Virus record (IMG/VR): IMGVR_UViG_2778261571_000004
DNA: 64,000 nt
DNA from: a virus
Taxonomy: Duplodnaviria; Heunggongvirae; Uroviricota; Caudoviricetes
Reading direction: 5' to 3' (one strand)
Within the stretch, counting starts at the first letter, position 1. Each line of letters begins with the position of its first letter. Position numbers and translations under genes: made by a program. A model generated the notes under the pieces. It was not told where the DNA came from. It ran no database searches and saw only the letters and a program-made list of their open reading frames with translations. Positions 7,877-15,890 of this stretch are shown in pieces.

Positions 7877-9910
7877 TTACTTAACCTGGTGGCCAGGTTT
7901 AGCACCGACATCCGGGCTTAACAGGAAGATATCTTTCCCGCCAGGGCCAGCAGCCATCACCATGCCTTCGGAGATACCGAAGCGCATTTTACGCGGAGCC
8001 AGGTTAGCCACCATAATGGTGTGACGACCAATCAGTGCCTGTGGGTCTGGATAAGCAGAACGGATGCCTGAGAAGACATTGCGTTTTTCACCGCCGAGAT
8101 CCAGTGTCAGACGCAGCAGCTTGTCAGAACCTTCAACAAACTCTGCGTTTTCGATCAGCGCCACGCGCAGGTCAACTTTGGCGAAGTCGTCAAAGGTGAT
8201 GGTTTCCTGAATCGGGTCGTCAGCCAGTGGGCCAGTTACCGGTGCGGCTGTGGCTTTCACTTCTTCTTTGGATGCTTCCACCAGTGCTTCCACCTGTTTC
8301 ATATCGATACGGTTATACAGTGCCTTGAACGGATTCACTTTATGGCCCAGCAGCGGTTGCTGGATACCATCCCAGGTCAGTTCTGTATTCAGGAATGCTT
8401 CTGCACGTTCAGTCAGTTTCGGCAGTACCGGCTTCAGGTACGTCATCAGCACGCGGAACAGGTTAATGCCCATAGAGCAAATCGCCTGCAGATCGGCATC
8501 GCGTCCTTCCTGCTTCGCCACCACCCACGGAGCCTGTTCATCGACATAGCGGTTAGCCAGGTCAGCCAATGCCATGATTTCACGGATAGCTTTACCAAAT
8601 TCGCGGCTTTCCCATGCTTCGCCAATCACTTCAGCGGCATCAGTAAAGGTTTTGTACAGTTGCGGGTCAGCCAGTTCGTTTGCCAGCACGCCGTCAAAAC
8701 GCTTGTTGATAAAGCCTGCATTACGGGAGGCCAGGTTAACCACTTTGTTCACGATATCGGCATTCACGCGCTGAACGAAATCCTCCAGGTTGAGATCGAT
8801 ATCATCAATGCGCGAAGAGAGTTTCGCAGTGTAGTAGTAACGCAGGCTGTCAGCGTCAAAATGATTCAGCCAGGTGCTGGCTTTAATAAAGGTGCCGCGA
8901 GACTTGGACATCTTCGCGCCGTTCACCGTCACATAGCCATGAACAAACAGGTTGGTCGGCTTGCGGAAGTTGCTGCCTTCCAGCATGGCAGGCCAGAACA
9001 GGCTGTGGAAGTAAACGATATCTTTACCGATGAAGTGGTACAGCTCGGCGGTGGAGTCTTTCTTCCAGTATTCATCGAAGCTGGTGGTATCGCCGCGCTT
9101 GTCGCACAGATTCTTGAAGGAACCCATGTAGCCAATCGGCGCGTCCAGCCAGACGTAGAAATATTTGCCCGGCGCGTCCGGAATTTCAAAACCGAAGTAA
9201 GGCGCATCGCGGGAGATATCCCACTGTTGCAGGCCAGATTCAAACCACTCCTGCATTTTGTTTGCCACCTGCTCCTGCAACGCGCCGCTGCGGGTCCATG
9301 CCTGCAACATTTCGCTGAAAGAAGGCAGATCAAAGAAGAAGTGTTCGGAATCACGCATTACCGGGGTAGCGCCAGAAACCACCGATTTCGGCTCGATCAA
9401 TTCAGTCGGGCTATATGTTGCGCCGCAGACTTCACAGTTATCGCCGTATTGATCTGGCGCTTTACATTTCGGGCAGGTGCCTTTTACAAAACGATCCGGC
9501 AGGAACATGCCTTTTTCCGGGTCGTACAACTGAGAGATAGTGCGGTTTTTAATAAAACCGTTCTCTTTCAGGCGAGTATAGATAAGCTCAGACAACTGAC
9601 GGTTCTCTTCGCTGTGCGTCGAGTGATAGTTGTCATAGCTGATGTTAAAGCCTGCGAAATCAGTCTGGTGTTCCTGACTCATTTCGCCAATCATCTGTTC
9701 CGGTGTGATACCAAGCTGCTGTGCTTTCAGCATGATCGGCGTACCGTGGGCATCGTCGGCACAGATGAAATTAACCTCGTGGCCGCGCATTCGCTGGTAA
9801 CGAACCCAGACATCAGCCTGGATGTGCTCCAGCATATGGCCGAGGTGGATTGAGCCGTTAGCGTACGGCAGCGCGCACGTCACCAGAATTTTCTTCGCGA
9901 CTTGGGTCAT
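7877..9910 (-). CDS. metG: methionine--tRNA ligase
   Basis: 677-aa product from Met44 of the track ORF; near-identical over its length to enterobacterial MetG as I recall it (HLGH and KMSKS class-I motifs, CPKC..CEVCG zinc knuckles). Confidence 0.95.
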
Positions 9911-10067
9911 AGTAGGCATTACTTCTTTGTAGTGAAAAGGGGCTTGATAGTAACAAAATGGCCTTATGTCTGCCATGTGATAACAGCATTTCTCATAAAT
10001 GATTAAATGTCGTAGCTGGAGTACACTACAAGGCGACAATTGCGCAAATTAAAATAAAGGAGACGGG

Positions 10068-11168
10068 ATGAGCGAGTCCAAATCGCCGGATGCCCTGAGA
10101 GCAATGGTAGCCGGTACGCTGGCTAATTTTCAGCACCCAACCCTGAAACACAACCTGACTACGCTTAAAGCGTTACACCATGTTGCGTTGATGGATGACA
10201 CACTGCATGTCGAACTAATCATGCCTTTCGTGTGGAATAAGCCTTTTGAAGACCTGAAAGAGCAATGTAGTGGTGATCTGCTCCGTATCACTGGCGCAAA
10301 GGCTATCGACTGGAAGCTGTCGTACAACATTGCCACGCTTAAGCGCGTCAAAAACCAACCAGGCATTAATGGCGTTAAGAACATTATCGCCGTCAGCTCA
10401 GGCAAGGGCGGTGTAGGCAAATCGTCCACAGCAGTAAACTTGGCACTGGCGTTGGCTGCTGAAGGTGCGAAAGTTGGTATTTTGGATGCCGATATCTACG
10501 GTCCATCAATTCCAACCATGCTGGGTGCGGAAAACCAACGTCCAACCTCACCGGACGGCACTCACATGGCACCTATCATGTCTCATGGCCTGGCAACCAA
10601 CTCAATTGGTTATCTGGTCACTGACGACAACGCGATGGTGTGGCGTGGCCCGATGGCGAGCAAGGCGTTGATGCAAATGTTGCAAGAAACCTTATGGCCG
10701 GATCTGGATTATCTGGTGCTCGACATGCCGCCAGGCACCGGTGACATTCAATTGACACTGGCGCAAAACATTCCTGTAACTGGTGCGGTTGTGGTAACTA
10801 CGCCGCAAGACATCGCGCTGATCGATGCGAAGAAAGGCATTGTGATGTTCGAAAAAGTCGAAGTGCCGGTACTAGGTATCGTCGAAAACATGAGTGTGCA
10901 TATTTGCAGTAACTGCGGTCATCACGAGCCAATTTTTGGCACCGGTGGCGCACAGAAACTGGCCGAGAAATACAACACGCAGTTGTTAGGCCAAATGCCA
11001 CTTCATATCTCTCTTCGTGAAGATCTGGATAACGGAACACCAACCGTTATTAGTCGTCCAGATAGCGAATTTACGGCTATTTATCGTGACCTCGCAGATC
11101 GCGTTGCTGCCCAAATGTATTGGCAAGGTGAAGTAATACCTGGCGAAATCGCATTCCGCGCAGTGTGA
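10068..11168 (+). CDS. apbC: Fe-S cluster carrier ATPase ApbC/Mrp
   Basis: P-loop SSGKGGVGKS, ParA/Mrp family, CxxC near C-terminal half; divergent from metG as in enterobacterial chromosomes. Confidence 0.9.
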   Translation: MSESKSPDALRAMVAGTLANFQHPTLKHNLTTLKALHHVALMDDTLHVELIMPFVWNKPFEDLKEQCSGDLLRITGAKAIDWKLSYNIATLKRVKNQPGINGVKNIIAVSSGKGGVGKSSTAVNLALALAAEGAKVGILDADIYGPSIPTMLGAENQRPTSPDGTHMAPIMSHGLATNSIGYLVTDDNAMVWRGPMASKALMQMLQETLWPDLDYLVLDMPPGTGDIQLTLAQNIPVTGAVVVTTPQDIALIDAKKGIVMFEKVEVPVLGIVENMSVHICSNCGHHEPIFGTGGAQKLAEKYNTQLLGQMPLHISLREDLDNGTPTVISRPDSEFTAIYRDLADRVAAQMYWQGEVIPGEIAFRAV

Positions 11169-11205
11169 TAAAAAGGCGGTGCAATGCACCGCCTAATCAG
11201 CTCTC

Positions 11206-11595
11206 CTACATCACGGGACAATCATCAAACTCGCCACTTCTTGCGTCGTTGATAATGTGAGTGATCACACCAAACACGGCATTGCTGCCCGTGCATCCAT
11301 CGTCATCCTTTGGCAATGCTTCCTTCTTACCGGTTCTTAAATCCTCCAGATGCTGACGTGGGTACTTCCGGTATCTTTTTACGCGATATTCCCCATCCAG
11401 AGCGCATACAAGCAGAGAACCATCAACCGGGGTAAGTGAGGAATCGACCACCAGCAATGCACCCTGTAATATTCCCTCACGATGATGACTATCAGCTGCC
11501 CTCATGAAGTAGGTCGCTGAAGGATGTCTAATTATCTGCTGATCAAGAGAAATACGGCTCTCAGCATAATCCGCCGCAGGAGAAGGGAAGCCCAT
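11206..11595 (-). CDS. UmuD'-like S24 peptidase-family protein that begins at the UmuD autocleavage site (no N-terminal arm)
   Basis: Starts M-GFPSPAADY, matching UmuD from Gly25 onward; Ser (ADSHH) and Lys (VKRYRK) of the S24 dyad are present; an in-frame stop lies 4 codons upstream of the ATG. Confidence 0.7.
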   Translation of the reverse strand: MGFPSPAADYAESRISLDQQIIRHPSATYFMRAADSHHREGILQGALLVVDSSLTPVDGSLLVCALDGEYRVKRYRKYPRQHLEDLRTGKKEALPKDDDGCTGSNAVFGVITHIINDARSGEFDDCPVM

Positions 11596-11613
11596 AGCGT
11601 TTTCACCTCAGAA

Positions 11614-11633
11614 TACTGTTTATCCATACAGTA
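11614..11633 (-). promoter_or_regulatory. LexA (SOS) box TACTGTATGGATAAACAGTA upstream of the UmuD'-like gene, approximate
   Basis: Perfect CTGT-N8-ACAG about 20 nt 5' of the GAGGTGA SD. Confidence 0.65.
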
Positions 11634-11759
11634 TACATTAAAGATGCTTGAAGTGTGCAATAGCGCGATGCTTTGCGCTCGCCTGGTGGTGCGTTATTTT
11701 TTGGCTATATCTTCTTTCTGATATACCGGATCGTTTCCTTTTGGCAGCAGGAGGCTTAA

Positions 11760-11957
11760 CTACCGGTAGTGCCGTAGCCGTTCCATGAAATAGGTGCGCA
11801 GGTTCTCAGGTTGCTCACGGGCTACCTGTTCCGCTATGACGGGTATGTTCAATCGCTCTTTGTAGGCAACCCCCCTGGCAGCCAGGTCAACGTTAACTTT
11901 ATTCCTTTCTTCCTGGCTTTTAGCTGCTATGTTCCATTCGTTCATATTAAATCCCAT
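11760..11957 (-). CDS. small hypothetical protein (65 aa)
   Basis: ORF only; no family recognised. Confidence 0.3.
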
Positions 11958-12413
11958 CCAGAATAATTGAATAACGGCTATTATTTAGTCGCCGCAATAT
12001 CTTCAAAGTTTTTTTTCTCACCCCATTGCTTTTTGCGCACAGCTTATCTGGCTTGCGGTGCGCGAAATGTAAATTCGCCTTCAGAGTTATCCACAAAGTT
12101 ATGCACTTGCAACGGGGCCATTTTCCTCATACCGTGTTTGCACACACAGGAAATGGATATTTTATTAATTGAATTTTATTAAATAATAATGATAAGGAGA
12201 AAATTTGAGATGTAATCATGACATTAATAGATAGGGCCTGCATTACAGGCCCCAACTACATCAAGGAATTCACAGTTCCCTGATTTTTATACCGAAAACA
12301 TGTGCCGTAAGTTCACGTTAACGACTTTCTTTCACCGAATCCAACTATATAGAGGTTGGGTTTCTACGTCAACGTGAGAGCACGCAGCTTTACATTAGAC
12401 GAGGATTACCCTG

Positions 12414-12551
12414 ATGATTGTATTTTTTCAGTTTCTAAGTGCATTTTTAAATGCGCCTGTTCTTAGCCAAGTGCTGGCGATTGTCTTCATCGTGGTTCTG
12501 ATATGGTTTTTCAAGTCAGTGATAAACAGAGGCGTGCGCTGGCTTATTTAA
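12414..12551 (+). CDS. candidate small hydrophobic membrane peptide (about 45 aa), approximate
   Basis: ATG with GAGGA SD about 8 nt upstream; product MIVFFQFLSAFLNAPVLSQVLAIVFIVVLIWFFKSVINRGVRWLI; not in ORF track (<60 aa). Confidence 0.3.
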   Translation: MIVFFQFLSAFLNAPVLSQVLAIVFIVVLIWFFKSVINRGVRWLI

Positions 12552-13083
12552 TGTCGCGATGAGATATTAATTCCCTTGCTGTTTAACCATTTTTTGTGTG
12601 TGCTGGTGAGCGTGTGAAGGCTCAATTTGTTGCCCACCAGTATTTACTATTTCTAAGCTCCACAGTGTCACTTCCGCACAAACAACTTAGCGCGGAATCA
12701 GTATTCGGCCCAAGATGTAAAAAGCCAACCTGCGTTATGGTTCGCATTTCCAAATAGTGTTCTGAACGCCCTTGCCGGGCGCGAGATGTAGATTAGCGTT
12801 CACGCTATGCTGATATACGGCTTTAGACTTTCCATATTGCTGACAGGCTTTATCTGCGGTTTTTTGCAGGCTATCCAGCCCATACCAGCCATCAGACTGG
12901 ATGCTTACCTTTTCACCGTCATTGTATTGCACCATCGCGCACCCAAACATGGCTATCATCGCACCGACAATACCACTTTTCCAAAAAGCTCTAATTAGGT
13001 CATTCGTTACCTAATGTCCGAACTGCTAAAGCATCCAAGTTGCTGTAGAATCACCGCCAATTACATAAGCCTGAAATAAGTGG

Positions 13084-14642
13084 ATGAAAATGACAAGTAT
13101 TCAACAACGTGCAGAGCTTCATCGTCAAATCTGGCAAATTGCTAACGATGTCAGGGGTTCGGTCGATGGATGGGATTTTAAGCAATACGTTCTGGGCGCA
13201 CTTTTCTACCGTTTTATCAGCGAAAATTTTTCCAGTTATATTGAAGCCGGTGATGACAGTATCTGTTATGCGAAACTGGATGACAGCGTAATTACTGATG
13301 ACATTAAAGACGATGCCATCAAAACTAAAGGCTACTTCATCTACCCCAGTCAGCTTTTCTGCAACGTAGCTGCGAAAGCAAATACTAATGACAGACTGAA
13401 TGCAGATTTAAACAGCATCTTCGTTGCTATCGAAAGTTCTGCTTACGGTTATCCTTCAGAAGCAGACATCAAAGGTTTGTTTGCTGATTTCGATACCACC
13501 AGTAACCGCCTGGGTAACACCGTTAAAGATAAAAATGCCCGCCTGGCTGCGGTTCTGAAAGGGGTTGAAGGGTTAAAACTTGGTGACTTCAACGAACATC
13601 AGATTGACCTGTTCGGTGATGCCTATGAGTTCCTGATTTCTAACTATGCGGCAAATGCCGGTAAGTCAGGCGGTGAGTTCTTTACACCGCAGCACGTCTC
13701 CAGGCTGATTGCACAACTGGCAATGCATGGCCAGACCCACGTTAACAAAATCTACGACCCGGCAGCGGGTTCCGGCTCACTGTTGTTGCAGGCGAAAAAA
13801 CAGTTTGATAACCACATCATCGAAGAAGGCTTTTTCGGTCAGGAAATCAACCATACGACCTATAACCTGGCGCGTATGAACATGTTTTTGCACAATATCA
13901 ACTACGACAAGTTTGATATCAAGCTGGGTAATACACTGACTGAGCCGCACTTCAGAGATGAAAAACCGTTTGACGCCATCGTATCTAACCCACCGTATTC
14001 GGTGAAATGGATTGGCAGCGATGACCCGACGCTGATTAACGATGAGCGTTTTGCCCCGGCTGGCGTTCTGGCCCCCAAATCCAAAGCTGACTTTGCGTTT
14101 GTATTACATGCACTGAACTATCTTTCTGCCAAAGGTCGTGCTGCGATTGTCTGCTTCCCGGGTATTTTTTACCGTGGCGGCGCGGAGCAGAAAATCCGTC
14201 AGTATCTGGTCGATAATAACTATGTCGAAACCGTGATTTCACTGGCACCGAACCTGTTCTTTGGCACCACCATTGCAGTAAACATTCTGGTGCTGTCTAA
14301 ACATAAAACGGATACCAACGTTCAGTTTATTGACGCCAGCGAACTGTTCAAAAAAGAGACTAACAACAATATCCTGACCGATGCCCATATCGAACAGATT
14401 ATGCAGGTATTTGCCAGCAAGGAAGATGTTGCTCATCTGGCGAAATCTGTCACGTTTGAGACCGTTGTCGCGAATGACTATAACCTGTCGGTAAGCAGCT
14501 ATGTGGAAGCGAAAGATACTCGCGAAATTATCGATATCGCTGAGTTGAATGCAGAACTGAAAACCACGGTCAGCAAAATCGACCAGTTGCGTAAAGATAT
14601 TGATGCGATTGTGGCTGAAATTGAAGGCTGCGAGGTGCAGAA

Positions 14643-14646
<4 letters not shown>
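13084..14646 (+). CDS. hsdM: Type I restriction-modification methyltransferase subunit HsdM (Type IC, EcoR124-family)
   Basis: 520 aa; NPPY catalytic motif (NPPYSVKW), AdoMet motif [10 protein letters not shown]; matches my recollection of EcoR124 HsdM. Confidence 0.9.

Positions 14647-15890
<1,244 letters not shown>

Follow-up and report, generated by a model that had tools for sequence, protein, structure and literature searches.

A conserved gene for a small membrane peptide, with a predicted antisense RNA in its leader, upstream of hot in P1- and SSU5-type phage-plasmids

Among the described type I toxin-antitoxin systems, the leader-targeting ones tisB/istR-1, zorO/orzO and ldr/rdl are the closest functional analogues of the locus reported here. 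This locus lies in a Caudoviricetes record (IMG/VR IMGVR_UViG_2778261571_000004), of which we analysed a stretch of 64,000 nucleotides (nt), called the window below, and specifically the region 11958-13083 between hot, which ends at 11957, and the type IC restriction-modification (R-M) gene hsdM, which starts at 13084. With the three systems above it shares a peptide of less than 60 amino acids (aa) with a single transmembrane (TM) segment and a basic tail, a leader of ~270 nt, a regulatory RNA, here a predicted one, complementary to a part of the leader that lies far from the Shine-Dalgarno (SD) sequence on its 5' side, and a mobile element with maintenance genes nearby. Unlike in those systems, the peptide promoter has DnaA boxes and no SOS box, the RNA is predicted to be a true cis-antisense RNA with ~115 nt of perfect complementarity, and neither peptide nor RNA is similar to theirs in sequence. 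The locus is also comparable with the hok/sok family (plasmid R1 parB, pnd, srn, flm), sharing a plasmid-borne small membrane peptide and an antisense promoter in the 5' region of the mRNA, and a 17-bp helix between the mRNA ends in the window allele is reminiscent of the tac/fbi fold-back. However, it has no Hok/Gef domain, no mok equivalent and no Sok match in Rfam, and the helix is without covariation support.

A first-pass annotation of the window had described the region as a spacer with no long open reading frame (ORF), containing a candidate hydrophobic peptide that might be a type I toxin. The region is indeed an AT-rich kilobase with no long ORF, holding ~20 ORFs of 25-74 aa, the longest being 74, 71 and 63 aa, but the word spacer does not fit its left 650 bp, which are a conserved "upstream-of-hot" module of phage P1 rather than inert DNA: positions 11958-12608 match the P1 hot-pmgV segment at 78% identity, and the P1 homology stops at ~12608. 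Within this module, a 45-aa ORF is in all likelihood a true gene, encoding a small membrane protein that crosses the membrane once, and the interval 12087-12624 as a whole may be a type I toxin-antitoxin-like module, which is plausible and unproven. The features of the module in window coordinates are as follows.

12087-12095 and 12099-12107, plus strand: two DnaA boxes of an nrdA-like promoter region, TTATCCACA and TTATGCACT, invariant in five alleles, with a 3-nt spacer that varies in the L012 group.
12107-12112 and 12130-12135, plus strand: candidate promoter of the peptide mRNA, -35 TTGCAA and -10 TACCGT with a 17-nt spacer; putative transcription start at ~12142.
12194..12215, plus strand: strong SD AAGGAG, 10 nt, then a start-stop mini-ORF ATG-TAA; kept in four alleles, the L012 group having GGGGGGAGG...GTG-TAA.
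12222..12336, minus strand: predicted cis-antisense RNA of ~115 nt with three hairpins, complementary to the leader of the peptide mRNA, proposed from fold and covariation, with putative ends.
~12292-12324, 12260-12284 and 12233-12251 (plus-strand coordinates), minus strand: stem-loops SL1, SL2 and SL3 of the predicted fold.
12372-12367 and 12349-12344, minus strand: promoter of the predicted antisense RNA, -35 TTGACG and -10 TATAGT separated by 17 nt; 10/12 consensus matches, hexamers invariant in five allele groups.
12414-12551, plus strand: 45-aa single-TM peptide gene with SD GAGGA at 12401-12405 and stop TAA at 12549-12551, identified by conservation and the ratio of nonsynonymous to synonymous changes (dN/dS).
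12584-12603, plus strand: 3' arm complementary to the predicted 5' end of the mRNA (12140-12159), a 20-nt repeat with 85% complementarity.
12607-12624, plus strand: weak terminator-like hairpin after the 3' arm, from a terminator scan.

The peptide ORF with its GAGGA sequence, 8 nt before the ATG at 12414, is present as first described. Its product, MIVFFQFLSAFLNAPVLSQVLAIVFIVVLIWFFKSVINRGVRWLI, is predicted to form one TM helix, with a 19-residue hydrophobic core at residues 15-33, a grand average of hydropathy of 1.72 and a net charge of +3, so that the ORF is small (<60 aa), hydrophobic and membrane-targeted, and it is conserved as coding sequence. By length alone a 45-codon ORF here is not beyond chance, and its significance comes from conservation. 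We compared five allele groups, namely those of the window and pHS30-1, of P1, of P7, of L012-L015 and of L016-L019 (the L numbers denote collected loci). The ATG is identical in all five, and in four of them the stop is identical as well, with zero indels over 135 nt despite 20-34 substitutions, while the flanks carry 1-nt and larger indels. In the remaining group, that of L016, 20 nt are deleted close to the 3' end of the ORF; the predicted peptide is then 42 aa long, and its N-terminus and TM segment are unchanged. Although the peptides of different groups are down to 58-60% identical, the replacements are mostly swaps among I, V, L and F, and both the TM core and the basic tail are retained. 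Synonymous changes are significantly in excess, with dN/dS of 0.28-0.45 (Fisher p 0.003, 0.016 and 0.053). Moreover, the conserved block next to the ORF is present at 73 genuine loci, and in every one of these that can be read (~70) the ORF is intact; in this tally two loci are cut by contig ends (L036, L057), one has IS1 clipped into the last codons, and a chance match (L076) was left out.

The competing coding interpretation comes from P1 itself. The hot-pmgV segment of P1 (GenBank NC_005856, M95666) is annotated with the late promoter LPhot, with predicted promoters, and with upfO, upfN and upfM, three ORFs of unknown function that all lie on the hot strand, as well as with a 56-bp copy of the E. 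coli nrdA promoter region including its DnaA boxes. In the window and L012 alleles, the frame of each of the three upf ORFs is broken by an in-frame stop or a frameshift, so that none of them is kept across allele groups. The locus is the same in P1 and in the window, whereas the upf ORFs are not conserved and the conserved gene is on the opposite strand; annotations of P1, of P7 and of window-type plasmids leave out the 45-aa gene. The NCBI Prokaryotic Genome Annotation Pipeline (PGAP) calls the P1-type allele as the hypothetical protein WP_000123562.1 and does not call the window-type allele. Conservation of the ORF, its synonymous excess, its integrity in all readable loci and the broken upf frames together lead us to consider the peptide gene real.

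A homology search had been suggested for the peptide, and it recovered the P1-type alleles with their conserved ORF, but neither a known family nor distant relatives. There is no Pfam family at E<=1, nothing in PHROGs, and in NCBIfam only spurious transporter and GUMAP matches at E<=10, far below the cut-offs. A word-index search of 5.8 billion proteins and a full profile search of 1.84 billion representatives both returned P1-type variants only. Pattern scans for new alleles gave eight chance matches in unrelated taxa in a genome collection, and only alleles already collected in IMG/VR (55 stretches, one of them the chance match L076) and in metagenomes (19 loci). Within these collections, the peptide appears to be without relatives outside these elements.

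Conservation is highest outside the ORF, in the stretch 12215-12385 before it, which is non-coding and nearly invariant, yet with 1-nt indels; because of these indels inside a conserved block, we consider it constrained at the DNA or RNA level rather than as coding sequence. It contains the minus-strand promoter, which sits within the 5' leader of the peptide, faces the opposite way, and corresponds to PupfN, annotated as a predicted sigma-70 promoter in the P1 record. The RNA predicted from it has a minimum free energy of -38.3 kcal/mol (z=-3.68). In the five alleles taken together, standard pairs make up 92% of the pair cells, compared with 31-47% when the partners are slid. Three pairs show compensatory double changes, as in the hairpin GGGCCTG/CAGGCCC, where the fourth pair is C-G in the window and L012 and U-A in P1 and P7, and the covariation score is reached by 1/500 shuffles, a value obtained from five alleles, two of them nearly identical, with a structure derived from the same sequences. 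The strand can also be assigned, as 31 G-U pairs of the fold would become C-A mismatches on the plus strand, so that 165 of 179 cells pair on the minus strand against 137 on the plus strand, and the minus strand folds better by 8-13 kcal/mol in all five alleles. On the whole, the conservation of the fold is supportive of an antisense RNA and not conclusive. Separately, an 18-nt inverted copy (83%) of the antisense-promoter block, 12353-12370, is found at 12714-12731, just past the stop of a lipoprotein ORF described below; it may be a chance occurrence.

For the plus strand, the depositors of P1 annotated the homologous segment as an nrdA-like promoter with a dnaA box, pointing towards the ORF. 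The -35 hexamer of the candidate promoter is invariant, and the -10 keeps TAnnGT in all alleles (TATTGT, TACTGT, TAGTGT, TACCGT). A transcript from ~12142 would have a 272-nt leader, to which the antisense RNA would be fully complementary at ~12222-12336. The strong SD with its start-stop mini-ORF lies directly 5' of this covered stretch; that ribosomes load or stand by at this site is speculation. Two plus-strand ORFs of 21 aa (12217-) and 25 aa (12300-12377) were considered as leader peptides and rejected, as their start or frame is lost in L012. In the window allele, the minimum free energy structure closes the predicted mRNA by a 17-bp helix of 12140-12156 with 12587-12603, including two G-U pairs, and has a second nested repeat. 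Across alleles 75% of its cells pair, which is not above column shuffles. This 5'-3' helix is real in the window allele, is only partly kept elsewhere and is without covariation support.

From the conservation of the ORF, of both promoters and of the RNA fold, we infer the transcription of the locus, the ends of the RNA, its repressive action and the toxicity of the peptide as follows. The interval 12087-12624 would be a self-contained module common to P1-family and some SSU5-like phage-plasmids. An mRNA of ~460 nt would probably begin near 12142, at the nrdA-type promoter behind the two DnaA boxes, and would carry the 272-nt leader followed by the 45-aa membrane peptide. The strong, invariant promoter inside the leader would give the ~115-nt three-hairpin RNA, which may restrain peptide synthesis either by blocking ribosome loading in the leader or by triggering cleavage of the duplex; the former is proposed since the conserved SD and AUG-UAA are just beside the duplex. 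Once de-repressed, the peptide may harm the membrane, and the module would serve as a stabilisation or stress system beside maintenance genes, namely humD and, in P1-like relatives, also phd-doc. It is the combination of a small membrane peptide, a long leader, a convergent antisense promoter, a structured RNA and presence or absence as a unit beside maintenance genes that makes the anatomy type I-like. The toxin idea of the first-pass annotation has thus gained an invariant opposite-strand promoter in the leader and a structured RNA with compensatory changes, while gaining no match to a known toxin or antitoxin-RNA family.

Several results weigh against this type I module, besides the small allele sample behind the covariation. 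Models of known type I toxins in Pfam and NCBIfam (Hok/Gef, Ldr, TisB, Ibs, ShoB, Fst and others) do not match the peptide, and Rfam gives no match at E<=1 on either strand of 10500-14000 (Sok, Rdl, IstR, Sib, OhsC and others). In the window allele, the plus-strand promoter has a poor -10 hexamer (TACCGT); no leader ORF with a mok-like overlap is conserved across alleles; and the predicted sense-antisense duplex ends 78 nt upstream of the peptide AUG. Sequestration of the SD in the full-length mRNA was rejected, as it has no consistent partner, its accessibility is average, and the result is inconsistent between alleles. The hairpin and U tail of the antisense RNA form a weak terminator that is not flagged in the terminator scan, and because of this weakness the transcript may run on into hot. 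Finally, the L016 deletion alters the C-terminal 9-12 residues of the peptide.

The alternative that survives best is that the peptide is a genuine but non-toxic small membrane protein, such as a modulator of host or phage membrane proteins or an accessory of exclusion or lysis timing, and that the minus-strand promoter with its folded RNA chiefly serves hot, as its promoter in lysogeny and as its leader, so that overlapping the leader of the peptide would be incidental or mildly regulatory through transcriptional interference. We hold this as a serious possibility, short of probable. Small membrane proteins are mostly not toxins, and the accessibility of the SD gives no hint of a locked mRNA. 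Also in its favour, hot is directly downstream on the minus strand, behind the weak terminator. P1 hot is expressed in both lysogenic and lytic growth, going by the title of Chikova & Schaaper 2007 as listed in PMC7556043, and expression in lysogens requires a non-late promoter upstream. In addition, knock-down of upfN and upfO by CRISPR interference and deletions of the region leave P1 plaque formation unaffected (PMC10695390); the region is therefore dispensable for plaque formation, a result that counts for a harmless protein but does not discriminate it from a toxin. Against a leader of hot, many phage-plasmids have hot without the block, with hot 2-5 nt after the lipoprotein gene, so the block is not a required hot leader; furthermore, the block strictly co-occurs with the peptide ORF and is never found without it, and its fold is conserved as three discrete hairpins, as is typical of antisense regulators. 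A more specific arrangement, in which the DnaA-box (nrdA-type) promoter would tie a membrane-active peptide to host DnaA and the replication state, with silencing by an antisense RNA possibly shared with hot expression, seems to us unlikely. The last possibility is that no peptide is made: the DnaA boxes, promoters and leader of the block would be conserved purely for the regulation, as DNA or RNA, of hot and of replication, with a frame open by chance in T-rich sequence. This would account for the conserved non-coding part, the divergence of the ORF, the frame-shifting deletion in one allele and the uncalled ORF in window-type plasmids, but it is made improbable by the synonymous excess, by zero stops in ~70 loci and no indels in 4/5 allele groups while the flanks are full of them, by an SD kept at the correct spacing with hydrophobicity and TM core preserved, by competing frames, including upfM, that are all broken, and by the PGAP call of the ORF in P1-type plasmids.

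We next present the neighbourhood of the module, of which the following features lie outside it.

11206-11595: humD, a umuD homologue (SOS gene), one gene left of hot, with the LexA box CTGTTTATCCATACAG at 11616-11631, upstream of humD as in P1.
11760..11957, minus strand: hot, homologue of the theta subunit of DNA polymerase III, left boundary gene (Pfam PF06440, E=3.7e-29), annotated as theta subunit in identical plasmids.
12735..13010, minus strand: small lipoprotein gene without canonical start (phrog_7757, E=1.7e-51), its ATG-started ORF at 12735-12959 and the homologous frame reaching ~12998.
12994..13083, plus strand: sequence flanking the type IC hsd cassette, as far as the start of hsdM; near-identity to the P1-like pHS30-1 ends at 12993.

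The left neighbour had been taken for the SOS gene, whereas it is hot, and the LexA-boxed humD is one gene further to the left. As side observations, Hot has 65 aa in the window and 87 aa in P1, its frame ending after ...RLRHYR without the C-terminal tail of P1; lxr, which lies between humD and hot in P1, is absent, the humD-hot gap being only 164 bp; and LPhot, mapped in P1 and aligned to window 11980-12003, keeps its -10 while the Lpa-binding -22 box is altered (AGTTACTTT in P1, AGATATTGC here), which fits residence in a non-P1 backbone.

Overall, the window is a phage-plasmid. Ten E. coli plasmids, 108-114 kb in size and with the same gene order of metG, apbC, S24 peptidase, theta and hsdM/S/R, match its positions 11600-13200 at 98.4-99.9% identity. 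We rejected the idea that the whole window is P1-like, as its backbone, compared over 19200-44000, has 97-98.5% identity with SSU5-like phage-plasmids (phages Cyrano, CMS-2020a and PhiR41_1) and 77% with Salmonella phage SSU5. With P1 homology only in the humD-hot-peptide block, the element is a mosaic of the P1 and SSU5-like phage-plasmid families. The SSU5-like backbone carries nrdA/nrdB, thyX and sbcCD, and window 7877-11168 holds a complete metG (methionyl-tRNA synthetase, minus strand) and apbC/mrp (plus strand) adjoining humD, a chromosomal gene pair captured as cargo. The metG/apbC arrangement is also annotated in plasmid NZ_AP027904.1, and apbC beside the S24 peptidase is found also in L022.

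The module is present in 229 plasmids of Escherichia, Salmonella and Shigella. Among complete E. coli genomes it is found in 216 of 5426 (~4%), and 218 of 219 places are plasmid-borne. It is present or absent as a unit between hot and the neighbour of hot, being missing in L020, L022 and pK91, and in P1-like phage-plasmids the block belongs to a region reported as highly variable (PMC9603915). In the window there is a single copy, and a search for a second copy there found none. The most divergent allele group offers a third kind of genomic setting: in L016 (3827-4231) an H-NS-family gene follows the peptide locus and genes with VRR-NUC and TsiV domains precede it. The suspicion of a toxin had rested on the position next to SOS or R-M loci. 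This rationale does not hold, as the peptide locus accompanies hot in P1-family elements without adjoining hsd, its neighbour in P1 and P7 being pmgV or upf90.8, and in the window the R-M cassette only joins 440 bp to the right of it. The link of the peptide locus to SOS or R-M is incidental.

The right part of the region is a different matter, and the peptide module (12087-12624) and the lipoprotein gene (12735-13010) are two unrelated things. The 74-aa minus-strand ORF, whose frame was said to stay open upstream without a start like a gene remnant, indeed remains open for 17 further codons (VTNDLIRAFWKSGIVGA) with no ATG, GTG or TTG, and the remnant can now be named as a lipoprotein gene that lost its canonical start. 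Its match to phrog_7757 spans the whole profile (positions 1-74 of 74), and it is 57-84% identical to ten members of an Enterobacterales family of 82-90 aa, whose proteins combine a signal peptide and lipobox with an invariant Cys; the family is found on 301 plasmids, while a tblastn search of phage records gave no match. The lipobox (AMFGC) and the hydrophobic region are present, but the first ATG leaves only six residues before the Cys, so that the window frame has no initiation codon followed by a signal peptide with the lipobox Cys. A full-length homologue starts ATG TTG CAT AGA GTT..., encoding MLHRVLWKSVIVGAMLAMSGC, where the window reads GAC CTA ATT AGA GCT..., and the sequence upstream is unrelated. 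In relatives the lipoprotein gene directly precedes hot, and the same hsd flank with the same start-less frame is found beside hsdM in L020 and L022. Since the near-identity ends at 12993, the upstream sequence is unrelated, and the same start-less frame recurs beside hsdM elsewhere, we consider that the junction of the hsd cassette removed the start codon and promoter of the lipoprotein gene.

The lipoprotein gene would consequently be either dead or dependent on a non-canonical start. That it still yields a normal lipoprotein precursor, for example from the ATT at 12993-12995 just past a 2-codon ATG-ACC-TAA mini-ORF, is somewhat unlikely: the open signal-peptide frame, with lipobox and Cys intact in two diverged hsd-linked alleles (...KSGIVGAMIAMFGC in the window and ...KSGIVGAILAMSGC in L020) that differ by synonymous changes as well, speaks for it, but there is only a weak SD and no ATG, GTG or TTG, the hsd flank has taken the place of the native promoter, and PGAP either makes no call here or annotates just an ATG-started coding sequence of 216 bp, for 71 aa.

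Type IC hsd loci within P1-derived DNA are already known (Tyndall et al. 1997, as cited in PMC12707154, and notes in the P1 record). Like those flanked by P1 DNA, the window locus has hsdM/hsdS/hsdR, three TAEL repeats in HsdS, and adjacent P1 sequence of the humD/hot type; unlike them, its carrier is SSU5-like and its junction removes the start of the lipoprotein gene. The hsdS gene lies at 14643-15890, and its three TAEL repeats give the spacer length of the EcoR124II/EcoDXXI type; a change of the TAEL repeat number is known to alter the gap of the recognition site.

Few phages have been studied as closely as P1, and in E. coli and Salmonella resistance genes are commonly carried by phage-plasmids of the P1 and SSU5 types. 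The start-less lipoprotein gene marks the exact junction where a type IC restriction cassette was spliced into one of them. If a conserved peptide and an antisense RNA do lie upstream of hot, the reference annotation of upfM, upfN and upfO would be corrected, a candidate maintenance or stress module would be added to P1- and SSU5-type elements, and the study of leader-targeted antisense control would gain a new peptide/RNA pair unrelated in sequence to the others. Were the module in addition to sense replication, it would equip the plasmid prophages of these types, alongside phd-doc, with a second addiction or abortive switch, one that works through RNA, and upfM, upfN and upfO would be artefacts of reading the wrong strand. 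Even if the peptide is non-toxic, it would still be a new conserved small protein of a model phage.

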